From a virus, in the IMG/VR virus record IMGVR_UViG_3300010398_000002, positions 1-64,000 of that record: a DNA stretch of 64,000 nucleotides, one strand, 5' to 3'. Each line of letters opens with the position of its first letter. Position 1 is the first letter of the stretch. Made by a program: the position numbers and the translations under genes. This document shows, in pieces, positions 1,321 through 55,151 of the stretch. The notes below the pieces were generated by a model that saw only the letters and a program-made list of their open reading frames with translations, ran no database searches and was not told where the DNA came from.

Positions 1321-4300
1321 CCCTGCGCACTGTGACGACAATTTTGTTTTCCTTTTTGCTGACAGAGTAGCGCTGGCCTACACCCTTGCCCACTACTACA
1401 TACCGCTTGCTGGTCTCACGCGGCTTGGGCTGGTTCTCCGGCAGCATGGCATTCATCATCTCGAACAGCTTGCGGGCCGACTCTTCCCTAGTGGCACTGC
1501 TGGGCTGCCCCGCCACGGGAAGGTTGATTGTGTAGTTACCCATGCCCGGGTGATCGCGATAGAGCCGTTGCGCGGCCCGTGCCGCGTGCTCGGCCTGTGC
1601 ATTCACCTCTGCCCCGGCTGCCGGGTTGAGATCGTCCCAGGCCCCGATCGCATCCTTGATCATCTGTTTTTGGTCGGCCCACATCGACCACTCGTCACTG
1701 TCCTGGTCACTCGGCTCGTCATGACGATGCGCTTCCTGGACCTGGCGCAATCCACGCAGTACCGAATCCTGGATTCCAGTCCAGAACTTCTCATCGGTAT
1801 CCGCCGCCGCCGCCTCCACGTCACCGCGCTCGATCACCGGAATGGCCTCTTGCTCGGCCTCGGGCACGAGGTGTTCTGTCTCCACCTCGAACGGGTCCCA
1901 CCTGTTCTCGGTGGGCACGTCGTTGGCTTCCTCGTAGGCGGCCACCTCGCGCTCGGCCTTGAGCATGGCCTTGGCCTGCTGCATCTTGGACCCGCGTTGC
2001 GGGTGCCCGGGTGAGGTCGCGGTGGGCTTCGGGTACGCCTTGTCGAGCAGCTCCTGCTCGTGCTCGGCCGCAACGTTGTAGTAGCTGTACGGGTTGTCCG
2101 CATCACCACCGGGCATATCTGCCGAGGCATTGGCCAACTCCGCGCGGATGACCTTGTATCTGTTCTCGTCGAGGAACCGGCGCGTGCCCTCGTACTCACC
2201 TATTGCCTGAATCTCGTCCATGAGCTTGGCTTCGCGATCTGGCTCCTCGTCCGGGCGCACTTCGACGTTGTGGATGCCGCGCGTCTCGGCAATAGCTTTC
2301 AGCTCTGCCCGGACGTTGGGATGACCATGCCGATTGATGTATTGCTGGAACGCTATGGGGTCCTGCCTCCAGGCGCGCAACCGCGTGACCTCAGGGCCGT
2401 CCATGTCCTCACCGCGTTGCTGCATGCGCGCCACGATCTGTACGACCTGGTTGTGCAACTGCTGGGCTTCGGCATCCAAGCCGGTCCTCACACCACCGAC
2501 AACGACACTGCCGGTACGCCCTGTCGCAGTACCGGCCTGGTTACCTGCAGTGCCTGGTGCCGCCTGCTGGGTGGTGGTCAGCCCACCACGGCGATAGGGA
2601 TTGGTCGGCCAGTTCTGGTAGTAGGCCAGATCACCGCGAATCTTGCCGGTATTGCGGATACGCTCGTCATCCAGCCACTGCGGGCGGTTGGCAAAGCCAC
2701 TGATCAAGGGATCGAAGTAGCCGACCAGCACGTCCTGGCTCTTGAGATGGCGTGGCTTGACGTAGCCGGTGTCACGCTCACCCGGGTTGCCCCTGCGCTC
2801 GACCGGCAGCTTGTCCGGACCGATCGCACGGAAGTTCGGGTCGCTGGGGCGGTGGTAGGCGACGCTGTCGATGTAGTACGGGTACTGGCTCTTGAGCGCC
2901 TCCAGCGCGTGCTGGTAGCCCTCACCATTCAGGAACAGCGTGCGCCCGACCTTGGGGTTCTCCTGCGCGCGGACCATGTCCTCGACGTTCTTCTGAGCCT
3001 GCTCAGTGACTCGCGCGCGCGCTTCGAGGTTGTCCCCAGCGGCAGCAAGCAACCGGTCGTGCTCATCCTTGAGCAGCTGCTCGTACTGCGCCTGGGTGAC
3101 CTCACCGTGCACCTTGACCTTGCCCGAGGCCACCGCGTCCAGAATCTTGCCGTAGCGCTTGCTCATGCCCAGCGCGATGTCGCCGAAGCGCTTGTCGTGC
3201 GCGAACTCATTGTCGAACGTGAGTTGGTAGGTGCCCTGACGGCTGGCCACCGTGAAGCCCTTGGCGCCGGAGATGGCGCTCGCGTAGATGTCCTCGGTGG
3301 TAGGCCCGCCGGTCGAGCGCGTCCTGATGTAGGACCCACCAGGCTCACCACGCTTGGCTGGCTTCATCTTCCAGAGCCCGGACAGCTTGAACGGCAGATA
3401 ATGATCGTCGGCATACCCGTGCGCCTCGGTGACCACATCGCCGTTCTGGTCCAGCAGATAGCCATGGCTGGGCGCGGTGTAGCCGCTGGCCAGGTTCAGC
3501 TCGTGAATCTGGCGCGACGGCACATGCCTGCTGATGGTGCCCACCAACAACCCGTGGTACTGCTCAGGCGTCATGCCCTGCGGCCTGTCCGGCAGCCCAC
3601 GCGGCTTACGCTCCACGCCTCGGTACTGGTAGGCAGCACGCCGTGCGTGCGGCCCTATGACCTTCTCAGCCTCGGGACCGTGCGATCCCACGTACTGCCC
3701 CACCGCTGCGGCAACCTGCGCCTTGGGCGAGCCCTGCGCAATGGTCTTGAGCGCCTTGGAGCCGGACTCGATGCGCTTGAACGCTCTACCGGTATCGGTG
3801 CCGTACTCCTTGGTGCCCGCATAGTTGGCCCAGTCGTCGTGGAACTGCTTGGCCCCGGTGTAGAGCGTTGATTCACCCTCGGCCGGGACTAGGCCACCGG
3901 CTGTTTTGGCACTCATACCGAGCGCCTGCAACAGATTGAACGTGCGATCACCGACGGTCAGATGGTCACCGCTGACGCCAGCACCACGGATGCCGACCAC
4001 AGCCTCACCGCGCTTGAGCTTGGGCACCTTGCCCCTGGCCGGAGCATGTGTACGAATATCACCCTTCTTGTTCCTGATGCGATATTCCACATCCTGCTGA
4101 CGTCCCCCGACAGCCGCGATGGTCGCCGCCTGCGCCATCAGCGCCTGGACCGCAGCCACATTTCCGGCCTGCTGCTGTGCATAGCTGAGTGGTTGTTTGG
4201 GCTGCTCGAACCTGCCGGTGTGCCGGAAGTAGCCGTGGTAACCGTGCGGGTGCTTGGCCCGCTGCTCGGCGCTCCAGTCCTTTCCGAACGAGGCCGCCGC

Positions 4301-12600: not shown

Positions 12601-13409
12601 GTCAGGCTGGTCGCGGTGTAACCGGTCTGACCGGTCTGACCGGTGGCGATCTGGCTAAAGCTGGACCCGTCGGTGGACTGCCAGATGGCGTAGGTCGGAA
12701 CCGGGTTCGCGGCGGCGTCCGCCGTCCAGCTCAGCGCGACGGAGGTGGGAGAGGCGACCAACCCGCTGATGGTGCGTGCGCTCGGTGCGACCAGCTGCAG
12801 CGGGATGTCGGCCGGTGCGTTGAGGTACGTTGCGATGGGGGCAGCGCCCTCGGTGGTGCCGTCGTAGTAGATCGTGTTGTTGTAGGCGGTGCCCATGGAC
12901 TGGGTGGTGTTCTCCCGCCACCACTCGACTACGAGAACGTCGCCGTTCTGAATGGTGACGTTGGCGCCGGTCACGGTGATGTCACAGATGCTGAACGCCG
13001 TGAAGGCTTCTACTGCGCTGCTCGCCGTCGTGACGTCGCAGATTCGGGTGCCGACCATCGCGCCCGTGCCCGGCCGCCAGAAGTAGATGCACATGCCGGT
13101 GAAGAAGTTGGACGCCGCGTTGGCTTCCGAATACCCGCCGTTGAGGTGCCAGCTCCCGGCGCCGTACGTCCCGGCCGCCAGTGGCGGTGACACCCAGGTG
13201 CGGAACCACGTCGGCTGCGCCGAGGTGGTTGCGTTGGTGTTGATCGCCACGGTGACGGGCCCCGTAGAGGTCCCGATCGTGCCGTTCATCACCCGAGGCG
13301 TGCTCGCCCCGGGTACGGTCTGCGCCGAGGTGAGGCTGGACTGTTTGGTGGTGGGAAGAGTGCCCGCGACACTGGAGTTCGCGTCGTGCAGGTAGAACTT
13401 CTGAGTCAC
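9615..13409 (-). CDS. giant tail fibre / minor tail protein (1264 aa)
   Basis: Contains an FN3-like segment and a lectin/LamG-like segment, then an Ala/Thr-rich ~19-aa repeat region and a C-terminal triple KVWTGSxW..KP motif typical of actinophage fibres. Confidence 0.75.
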   Translation of the reverse strand: MTQKFYLHDANSSVAGTLPTTKQSSLTSAQTVPGASTPRVMNGTIGTSTGPVTVAINTNATTSAQPTWFRTWVSPPLAAGTYGAGSWHLNGGYSEANAASNFFTGMCIYFWRPGTGAMVGTRICDVTTASSAVEAFTAFSICDITVTGANVTIQNGDVLVVEWWRENTTQSMGTAYNNTIYYDGTTEGAAPIATYLNAPADIPLQLVAPSARTISGLVASPTSVALSWTADAAANPVPTYAIWQSTDGSSFSQIATGQTGQTGYTATSLTTGQPYWFYVVGNNSQGSSTSNTVGPLTPTLFSRSYNFEGGASGSNITTTDTGSGDSFDGVGSSFTPTYNTTQAMHGTKAMAATGGVGNANSTVIWNVPTKTTLYARFYLYITSLPTSPAVWRLCTLTGSASTMDVWINNTGPLFLQSSGTNGPLGAVSVPTGQWVRIELSMVSSGPNTVGTVRLYKNADSFLLPDDVITMNATAQFSATTATFGEYSTSGSQPTIWLDDLALSEGNWLGPAATAPSNAVIVKNPSPTPSLKVTATSGSLASFSPVSGSTYLLLCVTLTDGTGTGGAVTSVAWSSGGSGSWGASPLARWQADGFSPDISIWMVHCTSNPGPSVIAVTGGSGVLHILADIVEISGDNYTSLLGATANSNSGTVPTVTLTPTYSGSWIVAALEDTFEAISNPTPNAATAISDNDTTYSGATALSMAGVANTIASTAQTIALTNTVSNASTYRFAAEIRALSAGPTATASLSIAAGPASAAAPATATASMSLAASATPAAPVTATASMSLLATGSAAATALATGTASLSISATGTIAAAPTATAALSVVAGTAVAVAKPTATAVLAFSATAGAAVIAGTATAVLVISATGTFAAPVSATAVLVIAASAPAIAAPSATASLTLLATGTASAVTGVTGTAVLVFSAGPVATVVPVSATAALSLLASAAARAAAPSTTAVLVLSAGVTAAAVPTATAVLVIAASTVAVAAPSATAQLTFAASAVPSFSGAAALTITATMAVSAPVTATAVLVIGATAAPSAQVTAIATMALSATATALVGGGLTGAAVLVVSASVTVKAAAGATAVLVIAATGAVQPVPVSGTAVLSIAASAAAAAAGTAAAVLVISATGSVQLPGVSGTAVLIISATAIPKATMTATSVLVISASAAPKAIAVANAVLVVSAAVVAAAQVAATASLVLFAGPASAAAKLTASAALVISAIATATAGGITGYPKVWTGSTWALKPAKVWTGTSWATKPVKVWTGSTWKTVV
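9740..11220 (-). repeat. in-frame tandem repeats (~57-60 nt) encoding ...ATAVLVISATG...-type units
   Basis: More than 20 recognisable peptide repeats in the C-terminal half of the 1264-aa ORF. Both antisense frames give Ala-rich shadow ORFs. Confidence 0.7.
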
Positions 13410-34148: not shown

Positions 34149-34789
34149 ACCGGCACCCCTCTCGCGTGTGCCTTACCGACACAGTCTGCCGTGCCCGTCC
34201 CGCCAGGGAACGCCACCAGCAGCTCCGGCTTGAACTCGTCCAGCATCACGCCGTTGCGGATCAGCCCGGCGCCGTGGCCGTAGCGGTCCCAGTCGGCCTC
34301 GAAGGTCACCGGCTTGATCCCGTTGGCCCGGGCCCACCTGCGAGCCAGCCGGTCGGCACCACGCGCCCCGCCTTGAGCCAACGCTGCCACTGGCATTACC
34401 TGGGTTAAACATGTGGCAATTGTGAGGTAGTTCGTATAGTCACGGCCACCGGTTACCGCTATCCTCAGCGCGTCCGGTAAGGGGGAAGCCGACTGGGGCG
34501 GAAGCGGGATGCGGATAATGCCCGAGCAGCGACCGTGTCTCAGCTTCCGTCCTGCTATCCGGCCCTTGCCCGGCTCGTAGTGCCAGTGCCAGCCACCACT
34601 TCGGATGACCGGGTCGCCCTGGCGTATCTGCTTGCCGCAGAGCCAGCACATTCGGCCGTCCTCGGCCACGCTGCAGTAGCCGGTCTGGGTGGGGATGCGG
34701 CCCCAGCGCCGTTCGTAGTCCTCACTGATCAACCGGAAGTGCGCCCGCACCTTGAGGTCGGGCCCGTCGCTGTACGGCCGGTCCGGCAT
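34094..34789 (-). CDS. SLOG/DUF2493-like Rossmann protein with Cys-rich N-terminal extension
   Basis: RIAVTGGRDY...AQGGARGADRLA..WA......F.ADW..YG..AG..RN..M......LVAFPGG.GT is the DUF2493 pattern. ATG 34789 chosen. Confidence 0.65.
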   Translation of the reverse strand: MPDRPYSDGPDLKVRAHFRLISEDYERRWGRIPTQTGYCSVAEDGRMCWLCGKQIRQGDPVIRSGGWHWHYEPGKGRIAGRKLRHGRCSGIIRIPLPPQSASPLPDALRIAVTGGRDYTNYLTIATCLTQVMPVAALAQGGARGADRLARRWARANGIKPVTFEADWDRYGHGAGLIRNGVMLDEFKPELLVAFPGGTGTADCVGKAHARGVPVWMATEQPCPDWAIVPSG

Positions 34790-35357
34790 GGTCCTCCATA
34801 GCAATCGGCCCGGACACTTCCCTCTCGGGTGGCCCGGGCCTATGCTGCAGATCGTCACATCGGCGGGTCCGAGCCTAACAGTGCCCAGCTCCTCCCGCCA
34901 TTAGCGAGAGGGGCTTTTTTGATTATCTGTGAGGGTGGCAAGCCTAAGCACCCGTGCCGGATACCACCGGACCGCCTGTATCTAGGGCTACCGGTCTGCC
35001 ACATGCACGATCCAAACGGCAAGCATGTCAAGGCGCATCCTGAGTACCGCGATGCGTTCGTGAAACGACTCCAGAAGCGAGTCCGGAAACTGGCCGGGTA
35101 GTAGGGCCGAGCGACCCGCTGCCCGAGCGGAGTACGCCATGACGCCGTGCAGGGGGCCTGCCGACACCGGGCTCTAACACTCGTCGCAGAGGGTATCCGG
35201 CCATGTCCGGGGGCCCAGTCAGCACTGCGGCTGGGTCTCGCCGCGCCCGACGGGCGTACAGCCGGACCGTGGATGCGGAGTTAGTTGCAGCCCGACAAAT
35301 CGGGTGAGGAGAGCACGGAAGTGCTATGCCCGTTATCAGTTAGTGGCAGTCTGTAGC

Positions 35358-35372
35358 AGTGTGTGGTATAGT
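35358..35372 (+). promoter_or_regulatory. extended -10 promoter GTGTGTGGTATAGT (first of plus block)
   Basis: TATAGT 35367-72 with upstream TG. Confidence 0.55.
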
Positions 35373-35488
35373 GGTACCTGTCATTGAGAGGCCACCGCCC
35401 CAAAGGGCGGACTGGCACCGAGGAATCCTCGGGAATCTGGGTGGAAATCCAGAGGTCCAGTGCAGACCTATTCGTAAAGGAGGCATCA

Positions 35489-35743
35489 ATGACAAACGTC
35501 CATCAACTACACAATGTGCCAGAGTTCACGCCTGCTGAGGCTGCGATCCTGGCAGCCGTGGAGGACCGGAACAAGGCCGAACGGGAAAGGCGTCGTAAAC
35601 AAGGTGTCGCGCTAGCGTCACTGAGAAAACGGGTCAGCCTTCTCGAACGAACTGTCCAACACGACGCGGCAGAGACCGCAGCACTCAAAGAGGTGGTGCG
35701 GGAACTCAGGGTCCAGCTCAACATGGCGGTCTACAGCCGTTGA
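35489..35743 (+). CDS. small coiled-coil protein (84 aa)
   Basis: ATG 35489 after AAAGGAGG. Trimmed from track ORF 35384..35743. Confidence 0.7.
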   Translation: MTNVHQLHNVPEFTPAEAAILAAVEDRNKAERERRRKQGVALASLRKRVSLLERTVQHDAAETAALKEVVRELRVQLNMAVYSR

Positions 35744-35760
35744 AATTGCTGGAACGTAGG

Positions 35761-35789
35761 GCCCCGGGCAACCGGGGCTCTTTCTTTTT
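35761..35789 (+). terminator. intrinsic terminator
   Basis: GCCCCGG-GCAA-CCGGGGC then TCTTTCTTTTT. Confidence 0.75.
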
Positions 35790-35821
35790 GCCCACTTTGC
35801 CCTAGCCTTGTTATCCTCTGG

Positions 35822-35852
35822 TTAGGCATAGTGGCACTGTGTGTGCTATACT
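35822..35852 (+). promoter_or_regulatory. promoter with CATAGTG box and TGTGCTATACT
   Basis: TATACT 35847-52. Confidence 0.5.
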
Positions 35853-35904
35853 GGACGCAGTTCGGGGTACACCGCCCCGGGCACGATAGTGAGGAGAACT
35901 CAAT

Positions 35905-36207
35905 ATGACTGACACCACGCCAGAGGCCGGTGCTCACACCCAAACTCCCGCAACCGAGCAGGTTGCTGAGGAAGAGGTCGAGTACTACGAGCCATGGTGG
36001 CGGCGCACCGTTGGATCGGTACTGCCGCAGGACGCGGAGCAGCGTCGGACCATGCTGGTCCGGGCAGGCACCACCGTCCTCGCGACCGCAGTCTCCGGCC
36101 CGTTCGGGGTTGCCGTCCTCGGCTACAACGTGGCTGACTACATCCGCAACGCCAAGCTGCGGGAAGAGGGTAAGCCGCCGGTCGGACTGATCGAGGGCGT
36201 CATCTGA
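35905..36207 (+). CDS. hypothetical protein (100 aa), acidic N-terminus with a hydrophobic segment
   Basis: SD GTGAGGAGAAC. Track ORF. Confidence 0.7.
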   Translation: MTDTTPEAGAHTQTPATEQVAEEEVEYYEPWWRRTVGSVLPQDAEQRRTMLVRAGTTVLATAVSGPFGVAVLGYNVADYIRNAKLREEGKPPVGLIEGVI

Positions 36208-36226
36208 CGAGAGCCCCACAGAGCTG

Positions 36227-36263
36227 CCCCACCGCTTCACGTGAGCGGTGGGGCTCTCTTTTG
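36227..36263 (+). terminator. intrinsic terminator
   Basis: CCCCACCGCT / AGCGGTGGGG 10-bp stem then CTCTCTTTTG. Confidence 0.75.
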
Positions 36264-36289
36264 CCATTAATCACATTATGTGGTATAGT
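36261..36289 (+). promoter_or_regulatory. promoter TTGCCA-N17-TATAGT (TGTGGTATAGT)
   Basis: TTGCCA 36261-66, TATAGT 36284-89. Confidence 0.6.
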
Positions 36290-36339
36290 GGATACCAGTG
36301 AGACCGGAAATACCGGTCCACCGACAAGAGGAGAACGTC

Positions 36340-36651
36340 ATGACCGAATTGTCCAGAACACTGAACAAGCTGTCCACCGCACTGGTGGTGTTCGCGTGGT
36401 TCATCGGAGTCTTCGGGGTCATCGGCGGTATCGGCATCGCTGTCCAGACGGGCACCGGCCTTTCCACCGACTACCTCGGCAACATCCAGGACACCACGAC
36501 CCACCCGTACGTCGGCCTCGGCATCGGACTGATCGCTGTGTCGATCATCTACGCCGTGGTGGTGGCCTGGTTCGGCTACGTGGGCAAGGTTCTGGCCAAC
36601 CACGAAGCTCGCTCGCAAGCTACCTTCGAGCGGACCTTCCAGGTTTCCTGA
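36340..36651 (+). CDS. membrane protein (103 aa, 2 TM)
   Basis: ATG 36340 after AGAGGAGAAC. TM segments ALVVFAWFIGVFGVIGGIGIAV and VGLGIGLIAVSIIYAVVVAWFGY. Confidence 0.7.
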   Translation: MTELSRTLNKLSTALVVFAWFIGVFGVIGGIGIAVQTGTGLSTDYLGNIQDTTTHPYVGLGIGLIAVSIIYAVVVAWFGYVGKVLANHEARSQATFERTFQVS

Positions 36652-36660
36652 CAACGACAC

Positions 36661-36689
36661 GGCCCCGCTTCGGCGGGGCCTTCGTCATT
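36661..36689 (+). terminator. intrinsic terminator (weak T-run)
   Basis: GGCCCCGC-TTCG-GCGGGGCC then TTCGTCATT. Confidence 0.55.
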
Positions 36690-36709
36690 AAGCGATCTTG
36701 TGGTATAGT
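36681..36709 (+). promoter_or_regulatory. promoter TTCGTC-N17-TATAGT (TGTGGTATAGT)
   Basis: TATAGT 36704-09. Confidence 0.55.
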
Positions 36710-36764
36710 GTAGGTCATTGGCCCGTACTCACGGGGTAGGGGCCCCATGCCCAGAGGAGAACTG

Positions 36765-36917
36765 ATGGAAATGACTCGTGAACAGCTATTAGGACTGCTG
36801 CTCATCGCACTGGTCCTGGGCACAGGACTGGTGATCATCTGGCAATGGCCACTGATCACCGACTGGATTCACACCATCTTCGACACCAATCAGGCCGTGC
36901 CGGTACGGCACACCTGA
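36765..36917 (+). CDS. single-pass membrane peptide (50 aa)
   Basis: Below track cutoff. ATG 36765 after AGAGGAGAAC. LLGLLLIALVLGTGLVIIW TM. TGA 36915-17. Confidence 0.6.
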   Translation: MEMTREQLLGLLLIALVLGTGLVIIWQWPLITDWIHTIFDTNQAVPVRHT

Positions 36918-36922
36918 GACCC

Positions 36923-36953
36923 AGCCCTCGCCGCCCGGCGGGGGCTTTCTTCA
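36923..36953 (+). terminator. intrinsic terminator
   Basis: CCCTCGCCG / CGGCGGGGG stem then CTTTCTTCAT. Confidence 0.6.
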
Positions 36954-36957
36954 TGCC

Positions 36958-37066
36958 CGAACGACGGACCTGGTCATGCCCAACCAAGCCGTCACGACGA
37001 TCCGGGCCAAGCCAACGCCTTGCCGTCACGACAGATCAGATCGGTCCCGGCCAAGCCGTCACGACT
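36958..37066 (+). repeat. mini-array: 3 exact CCGTCACGAC cores (36989, 37023, 37056; 33-34 nt apart) plus one degenerate copy (GAACGACGGACC at ~36958)
   Basis: Same motif, orientation and period as the 50-52 kb and 54-55 kb arrays. Sits 45-150 nt upstream of promoter 37110-37138. Confidence 0.8.
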
Positions 37067-37109
37067 CACCAGACCCGACCAGACCCGGCCGGGTTTTCTT
37101 AATGCCCAC

Positions 37110-37138
37110 TTAACAGAGCAGGTGGCTAGCGCTAGGCT
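37110..37138 (+). promoter_or_regulatory. host-type promoter TTAACA-N17-TAGGCT for the 807-aa gene
   Basis: Differs from the phage TGTGGTATAGT class. Followed by a ~145-nt G-tract-rich 5' UTR. Confidence 0.45.
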
Positions 37139-37285
37139 GCCACCGCTGACAACGGGGGGAAAGGGGGAATCGGGGGAACCGGCGTCTCTCCTGCTATGGA
37201 GGCGTCGGGCAAACCAATCGGTAGTTCCGCGCAGCATGCTCTTTTGCAGCTGTGCGGACGATGTCATGACTCTAGGAGGAGTCTC

Positions 37286-39709
37286 ATGCATCGAACGCAA
37301 CACCAACCCAACCGCTGGCTGGCCGCGATCTGTGCGGTCCTGGCCATGGTGGCTCTCGCAGTCGGGGCGCTCATCGGGGCCACCTCGGCTGGGGCCAACA
37401 TCGGGGCCAGCAACTTCGAGGGCGGTGACGGCAACCTGGTCGTCAACACCGCCGGGAACACGGACTGGCTCACGCCGCCGCCGCACTTCGGGACGTCGCT
37501 CGACCTGCCGACAGGCTCGACCGACAACTCGTTCGGCAACGGCACCAAGGAGGACAACTCCAACGTCACCGTGGTGCAAGGGCAGATTCCGAACAACAAG
37601 GCGGACCTGCGCCGTCAACTGATCGGCTCGGAGCAGATCGGCGGCGACTTCTATCTGTACCTCGGTGCGACTCGTGCCAGCACCTCCGGCACGGTCAACT
37701 ACGACTTCGAGATCAACCAGGCCGCACAACAGGACCTGACGATCCCGGGAGCGCACACGCTGAACCGGACCGTGGGCGACCTGCTGGTCACCTACGACTT
37801 CCAGGGCGGCTCGCAGAAGCCCACGCTGGCCATCCGCAAGTGGACCGGCTCGGCCTGGGGTGCACCGACAGCACTGAACTCGGCCAACTCCGAGGGTGAC
37901 GTCAACCGGGTCAACATCCCTGCGAACCAGGGTGAGCCGGGCGACGGTGGCTACGTGGCGTTCACGTTCGCCGAGGCGTCGATCAACCTGACCCAGGCGC
38001 TCGGCCTGCCGTCCGGAGCCTGCGAAGCCTTCGCAGCGTTCTCGACGCACAGCCGCGCATCGGCGTCGTTCACGGCGGAGGAGAAGGACTTCATCGCTCC
38101 GGCCAACGCGCACCTCAACAACTGCGGCACGATCAAGGTCACCAAGGTCACCGAGAACGGCGACAGCAACTTCGGCTACGCGACCACGGGCCAGATCGGT
38201 ACCGCAGGGTTCAGCCTGATGAACGGCCAGACCAAGACCTACCTGGGCGTGCAGAACGGCGCCAGCTCGGTGGCGGAGAACCTCACCGCCGCGCAGGTCA
38301 GCGCTGGCTGGTCGCTCAAGTCGCTCGTCTGCACCGACCAGGGCGGCGCAAGCCACTCGATCTCGGGCGGCCTGGCGAACATCACCATGGTGGCTGGCGG
38401 CGAGGTGGATTGCACCTACACCAACCACCTGCAGTTCAGCCCGACGATCGCCACGCAACTGTCGGCGGGCACCGTCAACATCGGTGACCCGGTGCATGAC
38501 AGCTCGACCCTCTCCGGGGCGACTGCCAGCGCAAGCGGCACCGTGCACTACGTCGCCTACTCCGACAACGCCTGCACCCAGAACCCGCAGGACGCCGGTA
38601 CCAAGACGGTGTCAGGCGGCGTGGTTCCCGACTCCGACGCGATCAGCTTCGCGGCGGCCGGGGACTACTTCTGGCAGGCCAGCTACTCCGGGGACCAGAA
38701 CAACAACCCGGCAACCTCGGACTGCACCTCCGAGCACCTCGTGGTGAAGACCAACCCGGCTATCACCACGCAGCTGTCGCAGCAGGCCATCAGCCTCGGC
38801 GGCACGGTGCACGACTCGGCGAACCTGACCGGGGCCACCGCTGACGCGGGCGGCACGGTGCACTACGCGGCCTACGCAGGGGCGAACAACTGCTCCGGCC
38901 CAGACCTGCTCAACTCGACGGTGACGGTCAACAACGGCAACGTGCCAGACTCGGCGGACTTCACTCCGGCCGCGTCGGGCATGTACTCGTTCCAGGCCGT
39001 GTACTCCGGGGACGCCAGGAACAACGGGGCCAGCTCGGACTGCTCGACCGAGCAGCTGCTGGTCCGGGCCACCCCGGGCATCGACACCACACTGAGCCAG
39101 GTCGTCATCGTTGTCGGCAACCAGGCCAGTGACTCGGCGGCGCTGCACAACGCCACCAACGATGCCGGTGGCACCGTCACCTACACGGTGTTCACCGACG
39201 CCGCGTGCTCGAACCAGTTCGCGGATGCCGGTACCAAGACCGTCAACAACGGTGTGGTGCCTGACTCCGACCTGGTGACGTTCAACCAGTCGGGCACGTA
39301 CTACTGGCAGGCGCACTACTCGGGCGACACCAACAACGATCCGGCAACCTCCAGCTGCCTCTCGGAGATTCTGGACGTGCAGAAGGCCAGCCCGGGCGCA
39401 TCCACCGCGCAGTCGCTGATCCCGAACGACGCCTTCACGCTGTCGGGCGGGTTCCTCCCGACCGGCTCGGTCACCTTCAACCTGTACGCCGCTGGCGACG
39501 CGACCTGCTCGCTCGCTCCGGTCTACAGCCAGACGGTGGCAGTGAACGGCAACGGCACCTACTCGACCAGCAACGCTGGTGCTCCGAGCGGGTTCACCGC
39601 AACCGATCAGGGCCAGTACAACTGGGCGTCGAGCTACTCGGGCGACGCCAACAACAACCCTGCTAGCTCGGCGTGCGGCGTGGAGCACTTCACGCTCACC
39701 AACAGCTAG
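37286..39709 (+). CDS. secreted/cell-surface protein: signal peptide, jelly-roll-like domain, prealbumin(SpaA/Cna-B)-like domain and 4 Ig-like ~100-aa repeats (807 aa)
   Basis: ATG 37286 after AGGAGG. N-terminal WLAAICAVLAMVALAVGALIGATSAGA. CGTIKVTKVTENGDSNF...GW.L....C......GGEVDCTYTNH. Four repeats ending ...YSGD.NN.PA.S.C..E. No LPXTG seen. Confidence 0.8.
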   Translation: MHRTQHQPNRWLAAICAVLAMVALAVGALIGATSAGANIGASNFEGGDGNLVVNTAGNTDWLTPPPHFGTSLDLPTGSTDNSFGNGTKEDNSNVTVVQGQIPNNKADLRRQLIGSEQIGGDFYLYLGATRASTSGTVNYDFEINQAAQQDLTIPGAHTLNRTVGDLLVTYDFQGGSQKPTLAIRKWTGSAWGAPTALNSANSEGDVNRVNIPANQGEPGDGGYVAFTFAEASINLTQALGLPSGACEAFAAFSTHSRASASFTAEEKDFIAPANAHLNNCGTIKVTKVTENGDSNFGYATTGQIGTAGFSLMNGQTKTYLGVQNGASSVAENLTAAQVSAGWSLKSLVCTDQGGASHSISGGLANITMVAGGEVDCTYTNHLQFSPTIATQLSAGTVNIGDPVHDSSTLSGATASASGTVHYVAYSDNACTQNPQDAGTKTVSGGVVPDSDAISFAAAGDYFWQASYSGDQNNNPATSDCTSEHLVVKTNPAITTQLSQQAISLGGTVHDSANLTGATADAGGTVHYAAYAGANNCSGPDLLNSTVTVNNGNVPDSADFTPAASGMYSFQAVYSGDARNNGASSDCSTEQLLVRATPGIDTTLSQVVIVVGNQASDSAALHNATNDAGGTVTYTVFTDAACSNQFADAGTKTVNNGVVPDSDLVTFNQSGTYYWQAHYSGDTNNDPATSSCLSEILDVQKASPGASTAQSLIPNDAFTLSGGFLPTGSVTFNLYAAGDATCSLAPVYSQTVAVNGNGTYSTSNAGAPSGFTATDQGQYNWASSYSGDANNNPASSACGVEHFTLTNS

Positions 39710-39948
39710 GAGAAACTGGACGGCTGGACCAGCCGTTCCGAACACGGCGCCCCGCTGGTCGTCAGACGGCTTCCCCCCGAGGCCGCTGCCAGCGGGGCGC
39801 CCTTCAATCAGGAAAGGAGGCAGCTCATGGAAGGCAAGGGTTGGGGCTTCTCACAGGGCTGGTAACTGACCCATGCACTGGGTCCGCATCTAGCAGCCCC
39901 TGTCTCCCTCGTGCGGAGGCAGGGGCTGCTCTACGAGGAGAACCCCTG

Positions 39949-40047
39949 ATGGACTATTGGGACGGCTTCATCGCGGGCTACAGCTCAGGCGTCATCACCG
40001 TGGTCGTCGCCTTCGCCTTCATGATCTGGCTGGGAAGGAGGCGCTGA
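39949..40047 (+). CDS. tiny membrane peptide (32 aa)
   Basis: ATG 39949 after CGAGGAGAAC. GVITVVVAFAFMIWL TM. Confidence 0.45.
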   Translation: MDYWDGFIAGYSSGVITVVVAFAFMIWLGRRR

Positions 40048-47025: not shown

Positions 47026-48501
47026 TTGCCTACCACAGCAGTTGACAAGACCGAACAGGAAGTCATCGAGGAGCAGATTCTGGCCGAGCTGGGCAAGCTC
47101 GCCGGAGTGCGCTCCGGGCAGGACCGCATCCAGAAGGAGGGGACCAAGTACGTTCTGCCCCAGAGCACCTCGCTGCGCGACGACATCACGTTCCTGGTGG
47201 ACTACGCCGACGCCCTGGAGACCGAGACGGCGTTCACCCGGGTGTTCAAGTACCGCCCGTGGGACGGTGCCGCATGCTTCCAGGCGGCGCTGATGCGCGT
47301 CTGGGGCACCGCAGGCGTCGGCCAGGCCACCTACAGCTTCTTCGGAAAGAACCCGCCGGAGATGCGCACCATCGAGGTCGGGCCCCACCAGACCATGCAG
47401 ATTCCCTGGGGCCAGATTCAGTTCGCTCCGCTGTCGGCCACCATCACGTTGAGCGGTGTCGAGAGGCGGGACTTCGGGACGCTGTTCCAGATGATCGTGG
47501 TGTGCCCGAAGAAATACGCCAACCAGGTGGAGGGCCTGTTCACGATCGTCGAGCAGGAGTTGAAGGAGCACTCGATCTACAAGGGCCAGGCGTTCAACGG
47601 CGCCGAGGAACCAGGCTTCCTGGACCCCTACTCGGTGGACCGCAACAAGGTGATCTACACCGAGGAGATCGGTGACCAGCTCGACGCCAACATCTGGTCG
47701 ATGCTGCGGCACACCAAGGTGATCAAGCAGCTGGGGCTGCCGCTCAAGCGCTCGGTGCTGCTGGGTGGCCCGTACGGCACCGGCAAGAGCCTGACCGCCA
47801 TGGTCACCGCGCAGATCGCCATCGAGAACGGCTGGACCTTCGTGCAGTGCCGACCGGACGACGACCTGGCCCGGACGTTGCAGACAGCCAGGCTGTACGA
47901 ACCGGCGGTGGTGTTCTACGAGGACATCGACAACCTGTCCCGTTCCGGTGATCCAGAGACGATCAGCAAGCTGCTCGACATGTTCGACGGCATCTCCGCC
48001 AAGGGCACCCAGCTGGCCATGGTGCTCACCACCAACAAGGTGGACAGGATTCACAAGGGGATGCTGCGGCCGGGCCGTCTCGACGCGCTGATCATGCTGG
48101 ACGCGCTGGACGAGGAGAGCTTCATCCGGCTGGTCAAGGCAGCGGCGCCAGACGGCATGCTCGACCCGGAGATGGACTTCCAGGCGGTTGCCGCCTCGAT
48201 GAAGGGCTTCCTGCCCGCGTTCGTCAAGGAGGCCATCGACCGGGCCGTGCGTTACGCGGTTGCCCGGGTGGAGGGCAAGCCAGCGGTATTCACCACCCAC
48301 GACTTCGTGCGCGCCGCCGAGGGCCTGCGCCCGCAGCTGGTCACCATGAACGAGGCCAAGGACACGGTGGCGCCGGACGAGGCCAGCGTCGTCCTAGGGA
48401 AGATCGTCAAGGCAGCGGTGACCACTGGCGAAGTCGCGATCCTCGACCCTGACGACGGAAGCAAGCAGTACGTGCTCGGAACCACCAACTCCAGCACGTA
48501 A
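47026..48501 (+). CDS. AAA+ ATPase (classic FtsH/Cdc48-type module) with ~230-aa unknown N-terminal domain
   Basis: TTG start after TAAGGAGAAC. Walker A GGPYGTGKS, Walker B VVFYEDID, second region of homology TTNKVDRIHKGMLRPGRLD. Confidence 0.85.
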   Translation: MPTTAVDKTEQEVIEEQILAELGKLAGVRSGQDRIQKEGTKYVLPQSTSLRDDITFLVDYADALETETAFTRVFKYRPWDGAACFQAALMRVWGTAGVGQATYSFFGKNPPEMRTIEVGPHQTMQIPWGQIQFAPLSATITLSGVERRDFGTLFQMIVVCPKKYANQVEGLFTIVEQELKEHSIYKGQAFNGAEEPGFLDPYSVDRNKVIYTEEIGDQLDANIWSMLRHTKVIKQLGLPLKRSVLLGGPYGTGKSLTAMVTAQIAIENGWTFVQCRPDDDLARTLQTARLYEPAVVFYEDIDNLSRSGDPETISKLLDMFDGISAKGTQLAMVLTTNKVDRIHKGMLRPGRLDALIMLDALDEESFIRLVKAAAPDGMLDPEMDFQAVAASMKGFLPAFVKEAIDRAVRYAVARVEGKPAVFTTHDFVRAAEGLRPQLVTMNEAKDTVAPDEASVVLGKIVKAAVTTGEVAILDPDDGSKQYVLGTTNSST

Positions 48502-49997: not shown

Positions 49998-50147
49998 ATG
50001 GTCAAGGCGATTGTTCGAGCCGTAGGTCGCATCATCCAGACAGTGCGCAGCTGGATCAAAGGGCTCTTCACGCCAAAGGCAGTGCGGTATCAACGGAAGC
50101 GCAAGGTAACGGTCTCACCGAACTCGTCCCGTCCCCAGGCTGCATGA
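49998..50147 (+). CDS. small basic peptide (49 aa) immediately upstream of repeat array 1
   Basis: Below track cutoff. ATG 49998 after GAGAAGGAGAAAC. MVKAIVRAVGRIIQTVRSWIKGLF... (amphipathic, Arg/Lys-rich). Confidence 0.4.
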   Translation: MVKAIVRAVGRIIQTVRSWIKGLFTPKAVRYQRKRKVTVSPNSSRPQAA

Positions 50148-52005
50148 CTCACCAAGCCAGCCCGGCCCTGCCCTGTCCGTCACGACGGACCGGACCAGAC
50201 CTCATCTTCCCGTCACGACAACCCTTGCCATCCCAAGCCGGTCCGTCACGACACACCACGACGCGGCCCGTCGAACCTGGCCACACCGTTCCGACAAGCC
50301 ACTACGTGTCATGCCGCGCCATCACGTCAGGACAGACCAGGTCTCACCACGCCCGTGACGACAGACCAGGACTCTCCTGTCCACGCGACAGACTTAGCCA
50401 CACCGTCCCATCCCGTCAAGACGGGCCACTCCACGCCCCATCGTTCGACGAACCTCTTCACTCCAGGCCGTTCCGACAGGCCGGTCCTCGTCTCACCCAC
50501 CCGCGCCTGGCCGCACCGTCATGACTCTCCGTTCCTGGCCCTCCCGATCCGTAACGACACTCCATACCCTCCCATGCCGTCACGACGTCCCTACCCGCCT
50601 CGCCCCTGGCCGTTCCGTCAACGACGGACCCCTCCGGCCCGAGCCAGCCCACAATGACGTGCCGCACCGAATCCGACCGATCCGATCCGGACGTACCCCG
50701 CCTTATCACCCCTATCCGTCAGGACAATCCTGGCCATCCCATTCCGCTCCCGACGATCCCAACCGAGCCGCATCAGACCGAGCCGTCACGACTGTCCGCT
50801 CCCCTCCGGCCCACACCTCACCGTGCGACGATCCCGTCCCTACTCCATACAGTCCGCACCGGTCCGTCATGACACACCTCACTGAGCCAGTCCCTCCCAC
50901 GCCGTCACGACACACCAGGTCTCGCTAAGGCACGCCGAGCCTTACCTCGCGACATTCCACTACACGCCCACCCGTCACGACAGGCCAGTACACGTCTCGC
51001 CGCCACGTCACGACCAGCCCGTCCAGCACACGCCCTGCCTTGCCGTCACGACGGTTCTAGCCGTGCCATACCGAGCCGACCCAGCACGACACTCCGCTCC
51101 GGCGCTGTCCGGCCCACAACCCGCCACACCTGGCCGAATGACTATCCACACCAGTCCCAGTCCGACAAGCCACGACCACGTCACGGCGCGCCCTTGCCAT
51201 GCCGTCAGGACTCACCAGCCCATGACCCTCCAACCCTCGCCCAGCCCATCCGTCCCTCGCGACGCATCACTCCCATCCGGCCCGCGCCATATGACAGACC
51301 GCGTCGCAACACTCCTTGCCACTCCGACAGACCGCGTCCCTCCAGGCCGTCCCGTACCGTCCGACAGACCAAGCCAAGACGTGCCGTCCCGTCACGACAG
51401 ACCGATCCGGCCCGGACCGTCCGACAGGCCACATCTCGCCCCAGTCACCCCTCCCCGTACGACAGACCTCATCAGTTCAGACCTCACCGTCATTGACTCT
51501 CCGCACCTGGTCGCGTCACCCCAGACCGTCGAGACTGTCCATCCCAGCCCAAACCGTCGCGCGACAAACCTCTCCAAACCGAACCGTCACGACAGACCGA
51601 GCCGACCCGTTCCGAATGACAGTCCACTGCACATCTGTCCTCCCCGTTCGACGATCCTGGCCAGTCTCGGCCCGCGCCATGCCGTCACGACTATCCGCTC
51701 CACAACCTGCCAGTCCGAGCCGTCACGACATGCCGTACCAGCCCGAACCGTCACGACGAACCGATCTCAACCCCGCCGCACCGCGCCCGTCCATCCGACT
51801 ATCCGTCCCTGACCCTGCCGAGCCATCACGACATGCCGAGCCCAGACATGCCCTTCCTGGCCGTCCCGCATTGTCACACCACGCCCGCACCTGGCCGTCA
51901 CGACTATCCGTACCGACCCTTATCCGACCCGACCTGGCCGTCACGACCATCCGCTCCATACCGTCCCGACATTGACACACCACGTCACTACCCATCCGCA
52001 CCACC
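50148..52005 (+). repeat. repeat array 1: degenerate ~33-nt direct repeats, core CCGTCACGAC(N3)CCG, C-rich strand
   Basis: 16 exact CGTCACGAC copies (my line-by-line count), all plus strand, plus many 1-2-mismatch copies. First three cores at 50177/50210/50243. Core occurs in all three frames. Confidence 0.9.
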
Positions 52006-52106: not shown

Positions 52107-52820
52107 GTGATCACTTTGTGGATCATCTACGAACTCAAACTGCACGTTGACCGCCTGGTGGGAGGCATCCCCAAGCACCCGACGATCATCAAGCGCTGGC
52201 AGGAGGCACACATGCCTCCAAACCCGGAGCGTGTCGCCGAGCGGACCGGCCAGCCGGTGCCCACGGTCGAGCAAGCGACCGAGAAGACCATGGACCTGCT
52301 CGGCAGCCAGATGATGGACCCCGAAGAGGTCGTGCAGGGCATCTGGACCGGCTTCGTCACCATGCCCAACGGCACCACGCTGGCGCTGGAGAACCGCAAC
52401 ATCAAGGCGATGCTCAAGGAATCCGCCAACATCGTGCGGGTGCTGCCCGACATGCCCAAGAACACCAAGGGCGGCGCGATCCCGTTGAAGAACAAGCTGG
52501 CCGAGCGGGTGTTCGTCAACCCGCCACTCATCGCGATCCTCGACGAGGACGGCAAGCAGGTCACCGAACCGGAGTCGTCACCCGAGCGGCCCATCCACGT
52601 GATGACGATGCAGGGACCGCGCACCGCGCTCAAGCGGGTGGATCAGGTCAGGGACGTCACCCTGGTGTGCCAGCTCAAGGTGCTCGACGACGGGGTGATC
52701 ACCGAGGACATGCTGCGGATCATCCTCGACCACGCCAAGGAGAACGGCCTGGGCACCGATCGCTCTACCGGCGCCGGGACCTTCGAGTACGAGTTGAAGC
52801 GGATGGACCCGCCGCAATGA
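52107..52820 (+). CDS. hypothetical 237-aa protein with Cas6/RAMP-like glycine-rich loop (candidate RNA-binding/processing protein)
   Basis: GTG 52107 or TTG 52116 (GAAAGGG SD). N-terminal beta-strand then VGGIP. NRNIKAMLKES. C-terminal GLGTDRSTGAG (aa 214-224) fits GhGxxxxxGhG. No search done. Confidence 0.7.
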   Translation: MITLWIIYELKLHVDRLVGGIPKHPTIIKRWQEAHMPPNPERVAERTGQPVPTVEQATEKTMDLLGSQMMDPEEVVQGIWTGFVTMPNGTTLALENRNIKAMLKESANIVRVLPDMPKNTKGGAIPLKNKLAERVFVNPPLIAILDEDGKQVTEPESSPERPIHVMTMQGPRTALKRVDQVRDVTLVCQLKVLDDGVITEDMLRIILDHAKENGLGTDRSTGAGTFEYELKRMDPPQ

Positions 52821-53212
52821 ATGGGGAGAAAACCACGCTGGAATACCTGTCGGACAAGTACCGGCTGCAGATAGTGGCGATGCTGTCTGCCGGGCCCACC
52901 ACGGTGGCAGACATCGTGGACCGGATCGGCGTCATCACCCACAGCACCACGCAAAAGCTCGTGGACATGATGGTCGAGGAGGGCCGTGCGCGTCTGATCG
53001 AGTACGGCAAGGCAACCGGCTCGGACTACTACGAGCTGGTGACCATGCGGACCCGGGACGAGATCGTCGGTATGGCCACGGTCGCAGAGGGCGAGTCTCA
53101 GAAGACCGAGAACGCTGACTATTGGCACGGAGTCGAGGAAGCGCTGCACTGGGTGCTGGGCGAGCAGCCAAGCGCCTTCCAGATACGAATGATGCTCAGC
53201 GCAGGACCATGA
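52817..53212 (+). CDS. ArsR/MarR-like winged-helix DNA-binding protein (131 aa)
   Basis: ATGA coupling. LSDKYRLQIVAMLSAGPTTVADIVDRIGVITHSTTQKLVDMMVEEGRARLIEYGKATGSDYYEL matches the wHTH layout. Confidence 0.7.
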   Translation: MNGEKTTLEYLSDKYRLQIVAMLSAGPTTVADIVDRIGVITHSTTQKLVDMMVEEGRARLIEYGKATGSDYYELVTMRTRDEIVGMATVAEGESQKTENADYWHGVEEALHWVLGEQPSAFQIRMMLSAGP

Positions 53213-53827: not shown

Positions 53828-54091
53828 ATGTCTTACGCCAAGCCCGACCGATTCTTCGACGACGGTTTGATCTACCTGTCCACCCCAGCAGCAACGGTCG
53901 GGCTCGTGGTCAGGCACGGCCGGATCGTTGAGGCCCCGCCCTACGCCAAACGTTGGGCGTTGGGCAAGCACGCCGTGACACTGTGGCGCATGTACTCACA
54001 ACATCCGAGCAACCAACTGGTCTGGCTTCCTGACTCTCCAGCCCCTGCCATACCAAGCCGACTCCATATCACGCGGACACTCCGTACCTAA
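53828..54091 (+). CDS. hypothetical protein (87 aa); 3' end runs into array 2
   Basis: ATG 53828 (or 53816). Overlaps a Zn-ribbon-like ORF 53713..53931 in another frame. Confidence 0.5.
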   Translation: MSYAKPDRFFDDGLIYLSTPAATVGLVVRHGRIVEAPPYAKRWALGKHAVTLWRMYSQHPSNQLVWLPDSPAPAIPSRLHITRTLRT

Positions 54092-55125
54092 GCGCGCCAG
54101 GCCGAACCGACTCTTCACTCCACCGCTCGCCGCCCCGACACGACTCTCCACGTCAGTTCTCAGCGCGCCGTCACGACACTCCTCGCTACCCCTAACCTCG
54201 TCCCGCCGCACCGTCACGACACACCTCGTCACAGGCAGCCCTGATCAGGCCAAACCGTCAACGACCGGCCACGTCGTACCACTCCTGCCCCGACGATCCG
54301 CACCCCAAACCAGTCAGACCTCGCCGCCATGACGATCCGCTCCGACCCCGAACAATCCGAGCCGTCAACGACATACCTAACCGATCCGTGCCGTCCCGTC
54401 CGACAACCCAGTCCACCCCGTAACGACATTCCGGTCCGGCCCGAGCCGCCCCTTGCCGACAGACCGCATCACGACTGACCTCGACACCGTCACGACAGTC
54501 CGCACCAGCCCGAGTCAGTGCCGCCCAATCCTTGCCGTCACGACCATCCTGGCCGAGCCCATCCGCTCCGCAACGACTGACCTCGCCACCTCCACTCCGC
54601 CTCTCGCCGCCCCGTAACGACGGTCCTCGCCACTCTTCGGCCCGCCCTTGCCACTCCGTCACGACGGTCCGCGCCACGTCTCTTGCGAACCCAACCGAAC
54701 CGTCACGACTGTCCAATCCACGCCGCCCCGTGCGACGTACCTGGCCTAGCCCTACCGTTTCGACGTTCCTGGCCCATCCAGCCCGATCCATCACGACGTG
54801 CCGATTCACGCCCGGGCCAACCGGCCCAAGCCGTCACGACGACCCCTGCCTACTCGTCTCCCGCCATGCCGTCCCGTCACGACCTGCCACATCACTTCGA
54901 GCCAGACCGTCATGACATACCACTTCTTACCGGCCCAGACCGGTCCGTCACGACCTACCTCGCCTGGTCACCCCTATCCGAGCCGTTGCGACTCTCTACT
55001 CCAGTCCCGTCCTGACCTAACCATCACGACGTACCTGGCCTAGCCCACCCCGCCCGGTCCGTCACGACAATCCGTGCCTCACCAGACCTACACGTAACGA
55101 CATACCTAATCGGCCCTTCCCGAGC
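54040..55125 (+). repeat. repeat array 2: same CCGTCACGAC(N3)CC unit and orientation
   Basis: 10 exact CGTCACGAC copies (my count) plus degenerate copies (CCGTCAACGAC, CCGTAACGAC, CCATCACGAC, CCGTCATGAC...). Confidence 0.9.
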
Positions 55126-55151
55126 CGGTCCGTCCCCCGAAAGGAGGCCCC

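Follow-up and report, generated by a model that had tools for sequence, protein, structure and literature searches.

A short oriented pentamer array in a phage genome is a probable orphan guide-RNA array of a VIPR-type system

Introduction

Systems of the Viral Interference Programmable Repeat (VIPR) class were described in two bioRxiv preprints in 2026 (10.64898/2026.04.26.720920, 10.64898/2026.04.26.720927). They combine a phage-encoded ancestral RAMP protein, Vipr, with vrRNAs in which 9-16 YNNGG pentamers precede a 3' tail. One Vipr protomer holds each pentamer and sequesters GGY, and the NN bases recognize double-stranded DNA by pairing that follows a one-nucleotide-skip rule. The system has been experimentally shown to be an RNA-guided DNA binder; the natural role given for the system is the repression of competing phages (10.64898/2026.04.26.720920, 10.64898/2026.04.26.720927). 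Here we examine a 64,000-nucleotide stretch of viral DNA (positions 1 to 64,000 of the IMG/VR record IMGVR_UViG_3300010398_000002; "the window" below is this whole stretch) and, within it, a mini-array at 36958-37103 built around the 10-mer CCGTCACGAC. An original prediction, made from the sequence alone, had taken these 10-mers for operator or activator sites of an adjacent promoter. We argue instead that the phage's own VIPR-type system includes the mini-array as a short "orphan" guide-RNA array, a reading to which we give a probability of about 0.75. The class of system is already known; what the window adds is a third, small array lying 15 kb from the RAMP gene, and the finding is a distinct variant within this very recently described class.

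According to the same preprints, seven types of VIPR are distinguished, arrays can be staggered, and accessory (vap) genes with helix-turn-helix or winged-helix domains occur, a vap gene beside vipr being predicted to bind DNA or to be a nuclease (10.64898/2026.04.26.720920, 10.64898/2026.04.26.720927). Type II vrRNAs, of ~100 nt each, carry 9-16 repeats and an invariant structured 3' tail, and the repeats described for VIPR are all G-based (GGY/NN, NNNGG, YNNNG, NNNNG), with small-RNA sequencing reported for types II, III and V alone. VIPR is proposed to predate CRISPR as a minimal RNA-guided DNA-binding system (10.64898/2026.04.26.720920, 10.64898/2026.04.26.720927).

Layout of the mini-array and the large arrays

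The exact 10-mer CCGTCACGAC is found on the plus strand at 36989-36998, 37023-37032 and 37056-37065, at spacings of 34 and 33 nt, and is preceded by a degenerate copy, CCCGAACGAC at 36956-36965, whose terminal GAC stands 33 nt before the next GAC and thus in register. The motif search and this register confirm the three cores and the degenerate copy at ~36958 that had been reported earlier. An exhaustive search of the window returned 28 exact copies, all 28 on the plus strand and all within three arrays (expected from dinucleotide-preserving shuffles, 0.52 +/- 0.67); the 25 copies outside the mini-array fall within 50177-51947 and 54168-55068. One-mismatch matches outside the three arrays number 12, close to the shuffle expectation of 11.3 +/- 3.3 for the whole window, and the reverse copy noticed at 13027 (ACGTCACGAC, minus strand) can therefore be ascribed to chance, as had been supposed, although it matches at 9 of 10 positions and is not the exact copy it was taken for.

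The 10-mer is only part of a larger repeat. In the arrays, a unit consists of the 8-nt tag GTCACGAC followed by 4-8 NNNCC pentamers, and the mini-array, which is found by the same array detector, obeys this grammar with four units of a tag and five pentamers each. The original prediction had overlooked both the 5-nt periodicity between the cores (autocorrelation 0.46 at lag 5 and 0.49 at lag 33, expected 0.28) and the two plus-strand hairpin-plus-U-run terminators that flank the mini-array. CC is kept in 16 of its 20 pentamers and TC in three more. All of the following features lie on the plus strand:

36923-36946, plus strand: intrinsic-terminator hairpin followed by UUUCUUCAU (terminator scan); it ends the upstream small-gene cassette and forms the left bound of the mini-array
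36958-36965, plus strand: degenerate first tag CGAACGAC (sequence; GAC in register)
36966-36990, plus strand: body 1, ggaCC tggTC atgCC caaCC aagCC (5-nt register set by the tags)
36991-36998, plus strand: tag GTCACGAC; the preceding CC completes the core at 36989-36998 (motif search, parsing)
36999-37024, plus strand: body 2, gatCC gggCC aagCC aacGC cttgCC, 26 nt with one base extra (parsing)
37025-37032, plus strand: tag GTCACGAC, core 37023-37032 (motif search, parsing)
37033-37057, plus strand: body 3, agaTC agaTC ggtCC cggCC aagCC (parsing)
37058-37065, plus strand: tag GTCACGAC, core 37056-37065 (motif search, parsing)
37066-37090, plus strand: body 4, tcaCC agaCC cgaCC agaCC cggCC, which continues into the closing hairpin (sequence, parsing)
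37071-37103, plus strand: closing hairpin AGACCCG...CGGGUUU with the U-rich tail UUUUCUUAAU (RNA fold)

The left hairpin folds at -22.8 kcal/mol (z -2.6) on the plus strand; on the minus strand it has no U-run and a z of 0.0. The closing hairpin, weaker at -12.1 kcal/mol (z -2.1 on the plus strand, again with no U-run on the minus strand), is likely the 3' end of the predicted plus-strand transcript of the mini-array. Compared with shuffles, the mini-array RNA is unstructured on the plus strand (z -0.04) and strongly folded on the minus strand (z -2.3).

Upstream, 34400-36950 is a chain of small cassettes, each made up of a promoter-like site whose extended -10 is TGTGGTATAGT or closely similar to it, a short open reading frame (ORF) and a hairpin terminator; the mini-array comes after the last of them.

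The two large arrays of the window supply most of the evidence for the grammar:

50140-51980, plus strand: large array A1, with ~45 tag-like sites and NNNCC pentamer bodies, non-coding, 45% C and 20% G
54030-55130, plus strand: large array A2, with ~27 tag-like sites, ending ~20 nt short of the ribosome-binding site of the following plus-strand gene (55152)

Core-to-core distances in the arrays are 23, 28, 33, 38, 43 or 48 nt, that is 5k+3, and the bodies between tags measure 20, 25, 30, 35 or 40 nt. Degenerate tag variants all end in GAC. Among 180 pentamers, C occupies position 5 in 98% and position 4 in 79%, and positions 1-3 are variable. As plus-strand RNA the unit reads GUCACGAC(NNNCC)5, with the complement (GGNNN)5GUCGUGAC. 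This shared grammar, together with the single orientation of all 28 exact copies, upholds the earlier view that the mini-array and the large arrays belong to one system. It fits poorly with a set of operators: GTC..GAC does form a partial palindrome, as a double-stranded site might, but with steps of 5 nt (a half-turn), consecutive sites would alternate between the two faces of the helix, and the filler between the cores is itself constrained to NNNCC.

Autocorrelation in the arrays peaks at lags 5 and 10 with no 3-nt periodicity, which indicates that they are non-coding; a coding origin is further ruled out by spacings that are not multiples of 3 and by a GC3 filter that kept 0 array ORFs. 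Each of the three variable positions has ~50-57% GC, and none of them resembles a wobble position when set against codon positions. At gathering thresholds, Rfam gave no match in any array of the window or of 19 related loci, neither a hammerhead nor any other known RNA family, and the window contains no tRNAs. Scanning IMG/VR for CCGTCACGAC-N18-48-CCGTCACGAC returned 49 loci, almost all of them coding tandem repeats with spacings in multiples of 3, and none of them a relative.

The RAMP gene and its conserved linkage to the arrays

Between A1 and A2, and 15 kb from the mini-array, stands the proposed partner gene:

52116-52820, plus strand: vipr-like gene for a 234-aa stand-alone Cas7-like RAMP with the G-rich loop NGLGTDRSTGAGTF (homologues, AlphaFold2 model, Foldseek, hhalign)

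An alignment with 123 metagenomic homologues shows a common N-terminal GG.P motif and a C-terminal NGLGTDRSQGxGxF motif, which by its sequence is the RAMP G-rich loop and within which GLGTDRSxGxGxF is invariant or nearly so. The AlphaFold2 model of the protein has a pLDDT of 93.4, and its best Foldseek matches are Cas7 of type VII, Csm3, Cmr4 and Cas7-11 (E 2e-8 to 1e-5); viral proteins labelled "RAMP superfamily" match it at E 1.6e-13. At the level of sequence, matches to Csm4, Cas6_C and RAMPs are weak. No cas domain was detected among the neighbouring genes scanned, and Cas5, Cas6, Cas10, Cas11, Cas1 and Cas2 were all absent from them. A defining trait of a VIPR system is a stand-alone minimal RAMP (RRM core, G-rich loop, thumb) outside any CRISPR-cas locus, and the window contains such a RAMP.

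We took the type II system of Escherichia phage SUSP1 as reference (Vipr gene at KT454805 28474-29061). Aligned profile to profile, the window family (32 sequences) and the SUSP1-type Vipr family (26 sequences) match with 80% probability and E 1.4e-5 over 154 columns, from helix 1 to the G-loop; with a single sequence against the profile, the G-loop alone is aligned, at E 0.03. We regard homology of the RAMP to the SUSP1 Vipr family as moderately supported by these alignments. The guanine-contacting residues of SUSP1, D177 and W178, align with T/A and D in the window clade.

The link between RAMP and array is conserved. Related loci (3 metagenomic, 32 from IMG/VR, 9 from genomes and 1 from an isolated phage) were scanned for segments both 5-nt periodic and GC-skewed, which gave 49 period-5 arrays in 43 loci, nearly all adjoining the RAMP gene and every one of them (49/49) C-rich on the RAMP-sense strand. 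Most start no more than a few bases from the RAMP stop codon, and many stop at the ribosome-binding site of the next co-directional gene. Tags vary between phages (GTCACGAC, GTCA[ATG]CGAC, TAATTGAC, CATTCGAC, GATGCGAC), with GAC and the pentamers kept; NNNCC persists even in a phage of 44% GC. Where the tag has 9 nt, the units measure 29, 34 or 39 nt, the one added base lengthening the unit by one. The phase-breaking insertion universal to the clade is GAC, which makes up 118 of the 146 three-nt gaps and ranks first among insertions in 26 of 30 loci. Second, separate arrays occur in the relatives L051, L065 and L068.

These comparisons bear on what had been predicted about function. The arrays of the 43 loci lie by the RAMP gene, usually from its stop codon onward, and show no consistent relation to a promoter, which gives no support to reading the mini-array as operator or activator sites. 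No other gene near the window arrays has a homologue in any related locus, and this includes the winged helix-turn-helix gene at 52817-53212 that had been named as the binder; the RAMP is the sole conserved partner. That the motif has a specific phage-encoded partner very probably holds, but the role of a double-stranded DNA site is not supported, as the conserved partner is a RAMP, an RNA-binding protein. Nor is there support for the large arrays titrating or storing a DNA-binding factor, in view of the strand asymmetry of all 49 arrays, the 5-nt modules and the match to VIPR guide-RNA arrays. DnaA-box, Chi-like, primase-site, Rho-rut and centromere models were all dropped once the RAMP linkage and the 5-nt grammar had been found.

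The module also occurs in an isolate, which makes an experimental model available: Microcystis phage Mae-JY09 (L097; PP395641.1 37713-38976), an isolated cyanophage that encodes a distant member of the RAMP clade (26% identity), has a C-rich, CCGAC-punctuated pentamer array directly after the RAMP stop codon.

Comparison with known systems

Both SUSP1 and the window have a single small stand-alone RAMP that is encoded by a phage without cas genes. In both, non-coding tandem pentanucleotide repeats flank the RAMP gene and combine a conserved dinucleotide with variable positions, the polarity of the arrays relative to the RAMP gene is fixed, and hairpin-plus-U-run elements bracket RNA units; the RAMP families are homologous. 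In SUSP1, the vrRNAs are G-rich on the vipr-sense strand and each lies between sense-strand hairpin-plus-U-run elements. The profile alignment and the match to the described VIPR architecture together indicate that the window carries a system of VIPR type. There are also clear differences. With the same detector, SUSP1 arrays and those of the window clade are opposite in polarity relative to the RAMP gene. The window arrays are of kb scale with ~75 units, compared with 4 vrRNAs in SUSP1; the third pentamer position is pyrimidine-restricted in SUSP1 and unrestricted in the window, where D177 and W178 are replaced; and the window has no conserved accessory gene and possesses an extra array 15 kb from the RAMP gene.

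The filaments formed by CRISPR RNA (crRNA) and Cas7 in Class 1 CRISPR systems (types I, III and VII) resemble the proposed assembly in the Cas7 fold with its G-rich loop and in the periodic holding of a single-stranded RNA. The 5' handle of a crRNA is 8 nt long, and if the window RNA is read in the sense direction, the 8-nt tag before each variable segment recalls it. In contrast to Class 1 systems, however, the period in the window is 5 nt and not 6, the "repeats" have 8-10 nt and not 28-37 nt, the "spacers" are themselves periodic, and the window genes scanned showed no other cas gene and no sign of an adaptation module. A CRISPR-Cas mini-array, solitary repeat units and an RNA anti-CRISPR were rejected as candidates, given a conserved element of 8-10 nt, 5-nt-periodic filler and no cas genes beyond the lone RAMP.

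Cluster A mycobacteriophage stoperators, and iteron or centromere arrays such as P1 incA and R1 parC, serve as double-stranded DNA targets of repressor, Rep or ParR proteins. They share with the window arrays the many copies of a short asymmetric motif, the strong orientation bias and, for some copies, the proximity to promoters, but they are not known to have 5-nt-periodic filler or a RAMP partner. In the window clade there is no conserved DNA-binding gene, steps are of 5 bp and the polarity relative to the RAMP gene is strict, which sets these arrays apart from operator, iteron or centromere arrays.

By analogy with the characterized VIPR systems, the mini-array transcript would be coated by the Cas7-like RAMP (Vipr, 52116-52820) with one protomer per pentamer, the conserved dinucleotide being held by the protein and the variable bases exposed, and the resulting filament would recognize double-stranded DNA of competing mobile elements and silence them. 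In such a ribonucleoprotein, CCGTCACGAC may act as punctuation between short guide segments, as a handle, a register reset or a processing mark, and so would not be a double-stranded DNA operator. The plus-strand RNA would arise by read-through from the upstream cassette and end at the hairpin and U-run of 37071-37103, so that the position of the mini-array by the promoter of the 807-aa gene (37286-39709) would be incidental. What we observe directly is the repeat grammar, the RAMP fold, the linkage and polarity of RAMP and array, and the homology to SUSP1 Vipr; transcription, assembly of the ribonucleoprotein, DNA targeting and the choice of strand are what these observations lead us to infer.

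Several points weigh against this interpretation. Neither the sequence nor a promoter scan revealed a promoter in the stretch from the upstream terminator to the first tag, so plus-strand transcription would need to read through the -22.8 kcal/mol hairpin, and expression of the mini-array RNA is itself a prediction. The match to the SUSP1 Vipr profile is moderate, at the 80% probability given above. The repeats described in the preprints are all G-based, and in the window GG is antisense to the RAMP gene, the conserved dinucleotide on the RAMP-sense strand being CC here and GG in SUSP1. The window units have 4-8 pentamers against 9-16 in characterized vrRNAs, and they carry an 8-9-nt GAC-ended tag, and no structured 3' tail, where SUSP1 has a structured 3' tail or pseudoknot; type II architecture, with 9-16 repeats and such a tail, is thus absent from them. 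Finally, when targets of 29 guides were sought under nine gapped-code rules in 0.6 Mb of related loci and in the window with its arrays masked, the outcome did not differ from that with shuffled guides.

Choice of guide strand

The functional RNA is more likely the plus strand, C-rich and RAMP-sense, at odds of roughly two to one. Many arrays run from the RAMP stop codon to the ribosome-binding site of the next co-directional gene, and an array that abuts both genes in this way leaves no room for an antisense promoter. The terminators of the mini-array lie on the sense strand, as do those around the validated SUSP1 vrRNAs, which are RAMP-sense. The contrast between an unstructured plus-strand and a folded minus-strand RNA points the same way, as does the replacement of the guanine-contacting residues. 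Counting terminators around 41 arrays gave too few to inform the choice (two to the left and two to the right on the sense strand, one antisense), and promoter scans of the AT-richer relatives L060, L072 and L056 found no consistent antisense promoter.

We propose, tentatively and at slightly less than even odds, that the Vipr of this clade sequesters CC and not GG on a sense, C-rich guide RNA; each guide would open with an 8-nt GAC-ended handle, as in a crRNA, and the phage would make ~75 guides, some of them from orphan mini-arrays such as 36958-37100. The Vipr proteins of this actinobacterial, Chloroflexi and cyanophage clade would then represent a second, independent solution in the noncontiguous VIPR code, with an architecture between vrRNAs and crRNAs.

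Within the same VIPR system, the guide could instead be the G-rich minus strand, antisense to the RAMP, in the form 5'-(GGNNN)n-GUCGUGAC-3', with the published GG code and the tag serving as a short 3' tail; transcription of each array would start from a separate promoter at the distal end and converge with that of the RAMP gene. This version has the precedents on its side: the published VIPR types are all G-based, the SUSP1 protein contacts both guanines specifically, and the minus-strand order of dinucleotide, variable bases and invariant 3' piece is that of the published repeat tract and tail. Moreover, in the relative L060 an extended -10-like TGATATAGT, read by eye and unreported by the promoter scan, stands on the minus strand at the distal array end. 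We nevertheless consider a minus-strand guide rather unlikely. At least 10 loci, and A2 in the window, have a distal array end that abuts the next sense gene, which would put the antisense promoter inside coding sequence, and sense transcripts that cross the array would be complementary to the guides. At the mini-array, hairpins with U-runs exist on the plus strand alone, and the minus-strand RNA is strongly self-folded. The minus strand places the invariant G first and the variable G second, whereas in our reading of the SUSP1 repeats degenerate copies keep the second G. GG occurs in the window clade solely on the strand antisense to the RAMP gene, and the third position there is Y in only 58% of pentamers.

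The answer matters for how VIPR is understood. The window and its ~120 metagenomic relatives form a clade whose arrays have the strand polarity opposite to that of SUSP1; their units are very short and punctuated by GAC, and the number of guides per phage is far larger. A sense-strand guide would mean a protein-RNA code of greater plasticity than has been reported, and a 5' handle like that of crRNAs inside VIPR; an antisense guide would call for an explanation of convergent transcription within operons. Either result would be instructive. There is also a lesson for annotation, in that short oriented motif arrays with 5-nt-periodic filler by a small RAMP gene are to be annotated as guide arrays and not as operators.

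Alternative explanations

Apart from the choice of strand, the mini-array could be a non-functional, recently duplicated fragment of a large array that landed in an intergenic gap. Its four units, its distance of 15 kb from the RAMP gene and the failure to find a promoter of its own would suit such an origin. However, three of the four cores are exact, CC or TC is retained in 19 of the 20 pentamers with five pentamers in all four bodies, the mini-array is framed by two terminators like the characterized vrRNAs, and second arrays exist in the three relatives named above. We judge a duplicated fragment to be improbable.

A non-guide regulatory device is still less to be expected. Here the C-rich RNA and the RAMP would form a Rho-loading (rut-like) tract antagonized by RAMP coating, or a scaffold or sponge RNA, and the variable bases would carry no targeting information. 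Arrays with 45% C and 20% G that are untranslated and lie in operons upstream of other genes could serve in this way, the units are short, and the target search found none. Yet the system shares homology and grammar with a proven RNA-guided DNA binder, a precise 5-nt register and conserved tags are unnecessary for Rho loading, and a mini-array between two intrinsic terminators has nothing to antiterminate.

The operator model, in which CCGTCACGAC copies are double-stranded DNA sites through which a winged helix-turn-helix protein regulates the adjacent promoter and the large arrays titrate that protein, involves two further features:

37110-37138, plus strand: candidate promoter TTAACA-N17-TAGGCT of the 807-aa gene at 37286-39709, a neighbour outside the array (sequence)
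52817-53212, plus strand: 131-aa protein with weak winged-helix and helix-turn-helix matches (Pfam E 7e-4 to 8e-3, all below cut-offs)

Cores 45-150 nt upstream of this promoter and a weak helix-turn-helix protein encoded between the large arrays made the idea attractive, but with a promoter that, although present as described, scores only 8/12 against the sigma-70 consensus and went unreported by the promoter scan, an array insulated by terminators on both sides, a protein that lacks a homologue at every related array, the RAMP gene being always present there, a single polarity with respect to that gene for all 49 arrays, and relatives whose arrays usually run from the RAMP stop codon and not upstream of promoters, it is the least credible of these explanations and highly unlikely.

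Neighbouring genes and related loci

The window belongs to a phage with a Mu-like portal, DNA polymerase III alpha and DnaB. Neither megablast of 35500-40000 nor tblastn of a structural protein found a close relative among known phages (50,697 phage records), and on this comparison the phage is one without a close cultured relative. The product of the 807-aa gene combines a SpaA-like prealbumin-fold domain with bacterial Ig-like (Big_3_5) domains, which suggests an adhesin or surface protein, and none of the related VIPR loci contains a homologue of it. In the long 5' untranslated region of the gene, 37150-37182 contains three runs of five or six G (GGGGGG AAA GGGGG AATC GGGGG), and Rfam gave no match to a family there.

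The gene for the 131-aa protein overlaps the stop codon of the RAMP gene, has no homologue in the 45 related loci and is possibly an accessory (vap-like) gene, to judge by its position and weak domain matches. A 491-aa AAA+ ATPase gene at 47026-48501, 1.6 kb upstream of A1, is not conserved in the related VIPR loci.

Among the related loci, L056 (IMGVR_UViG_3300037483_001478) has perfect palindromes on AATGGCCATGGCCATT at 1410-1435, 1720-1745 and 1925-1955 that bracket its pentamer arrays and may be processing or termination hairpins; 14 copies of the same 8-mer, ATGGCCAT, lie upstream of the RAMP gene in this locus. Two of the closest relatives (L050 8893-9729 and L052 1-852) have a putatively ParB-like DUF6551 gene directly upstream of the RAMP gene; the Pfam matches are faint or weak, and the gene is absent from the window. 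Three unrelated high-GC viral contigs (L010 3700-3860, L030 8450-8610 and L045 1050-1210) share an intergenic region, lying between divergent genes, in which GTCACGAC and GTCGTGAY repeats are clustered in both orientations; it looks like an operator or iteron region and not like a pentamer array. In L059, a group I intron at 3851-4122 (Rfam, 88.9 bits) lies ~4 kb upstream of the RAMP gene; together with one tRNA in the same locus, it makes up the sole Rfam matches in the window and the 19 related loci.

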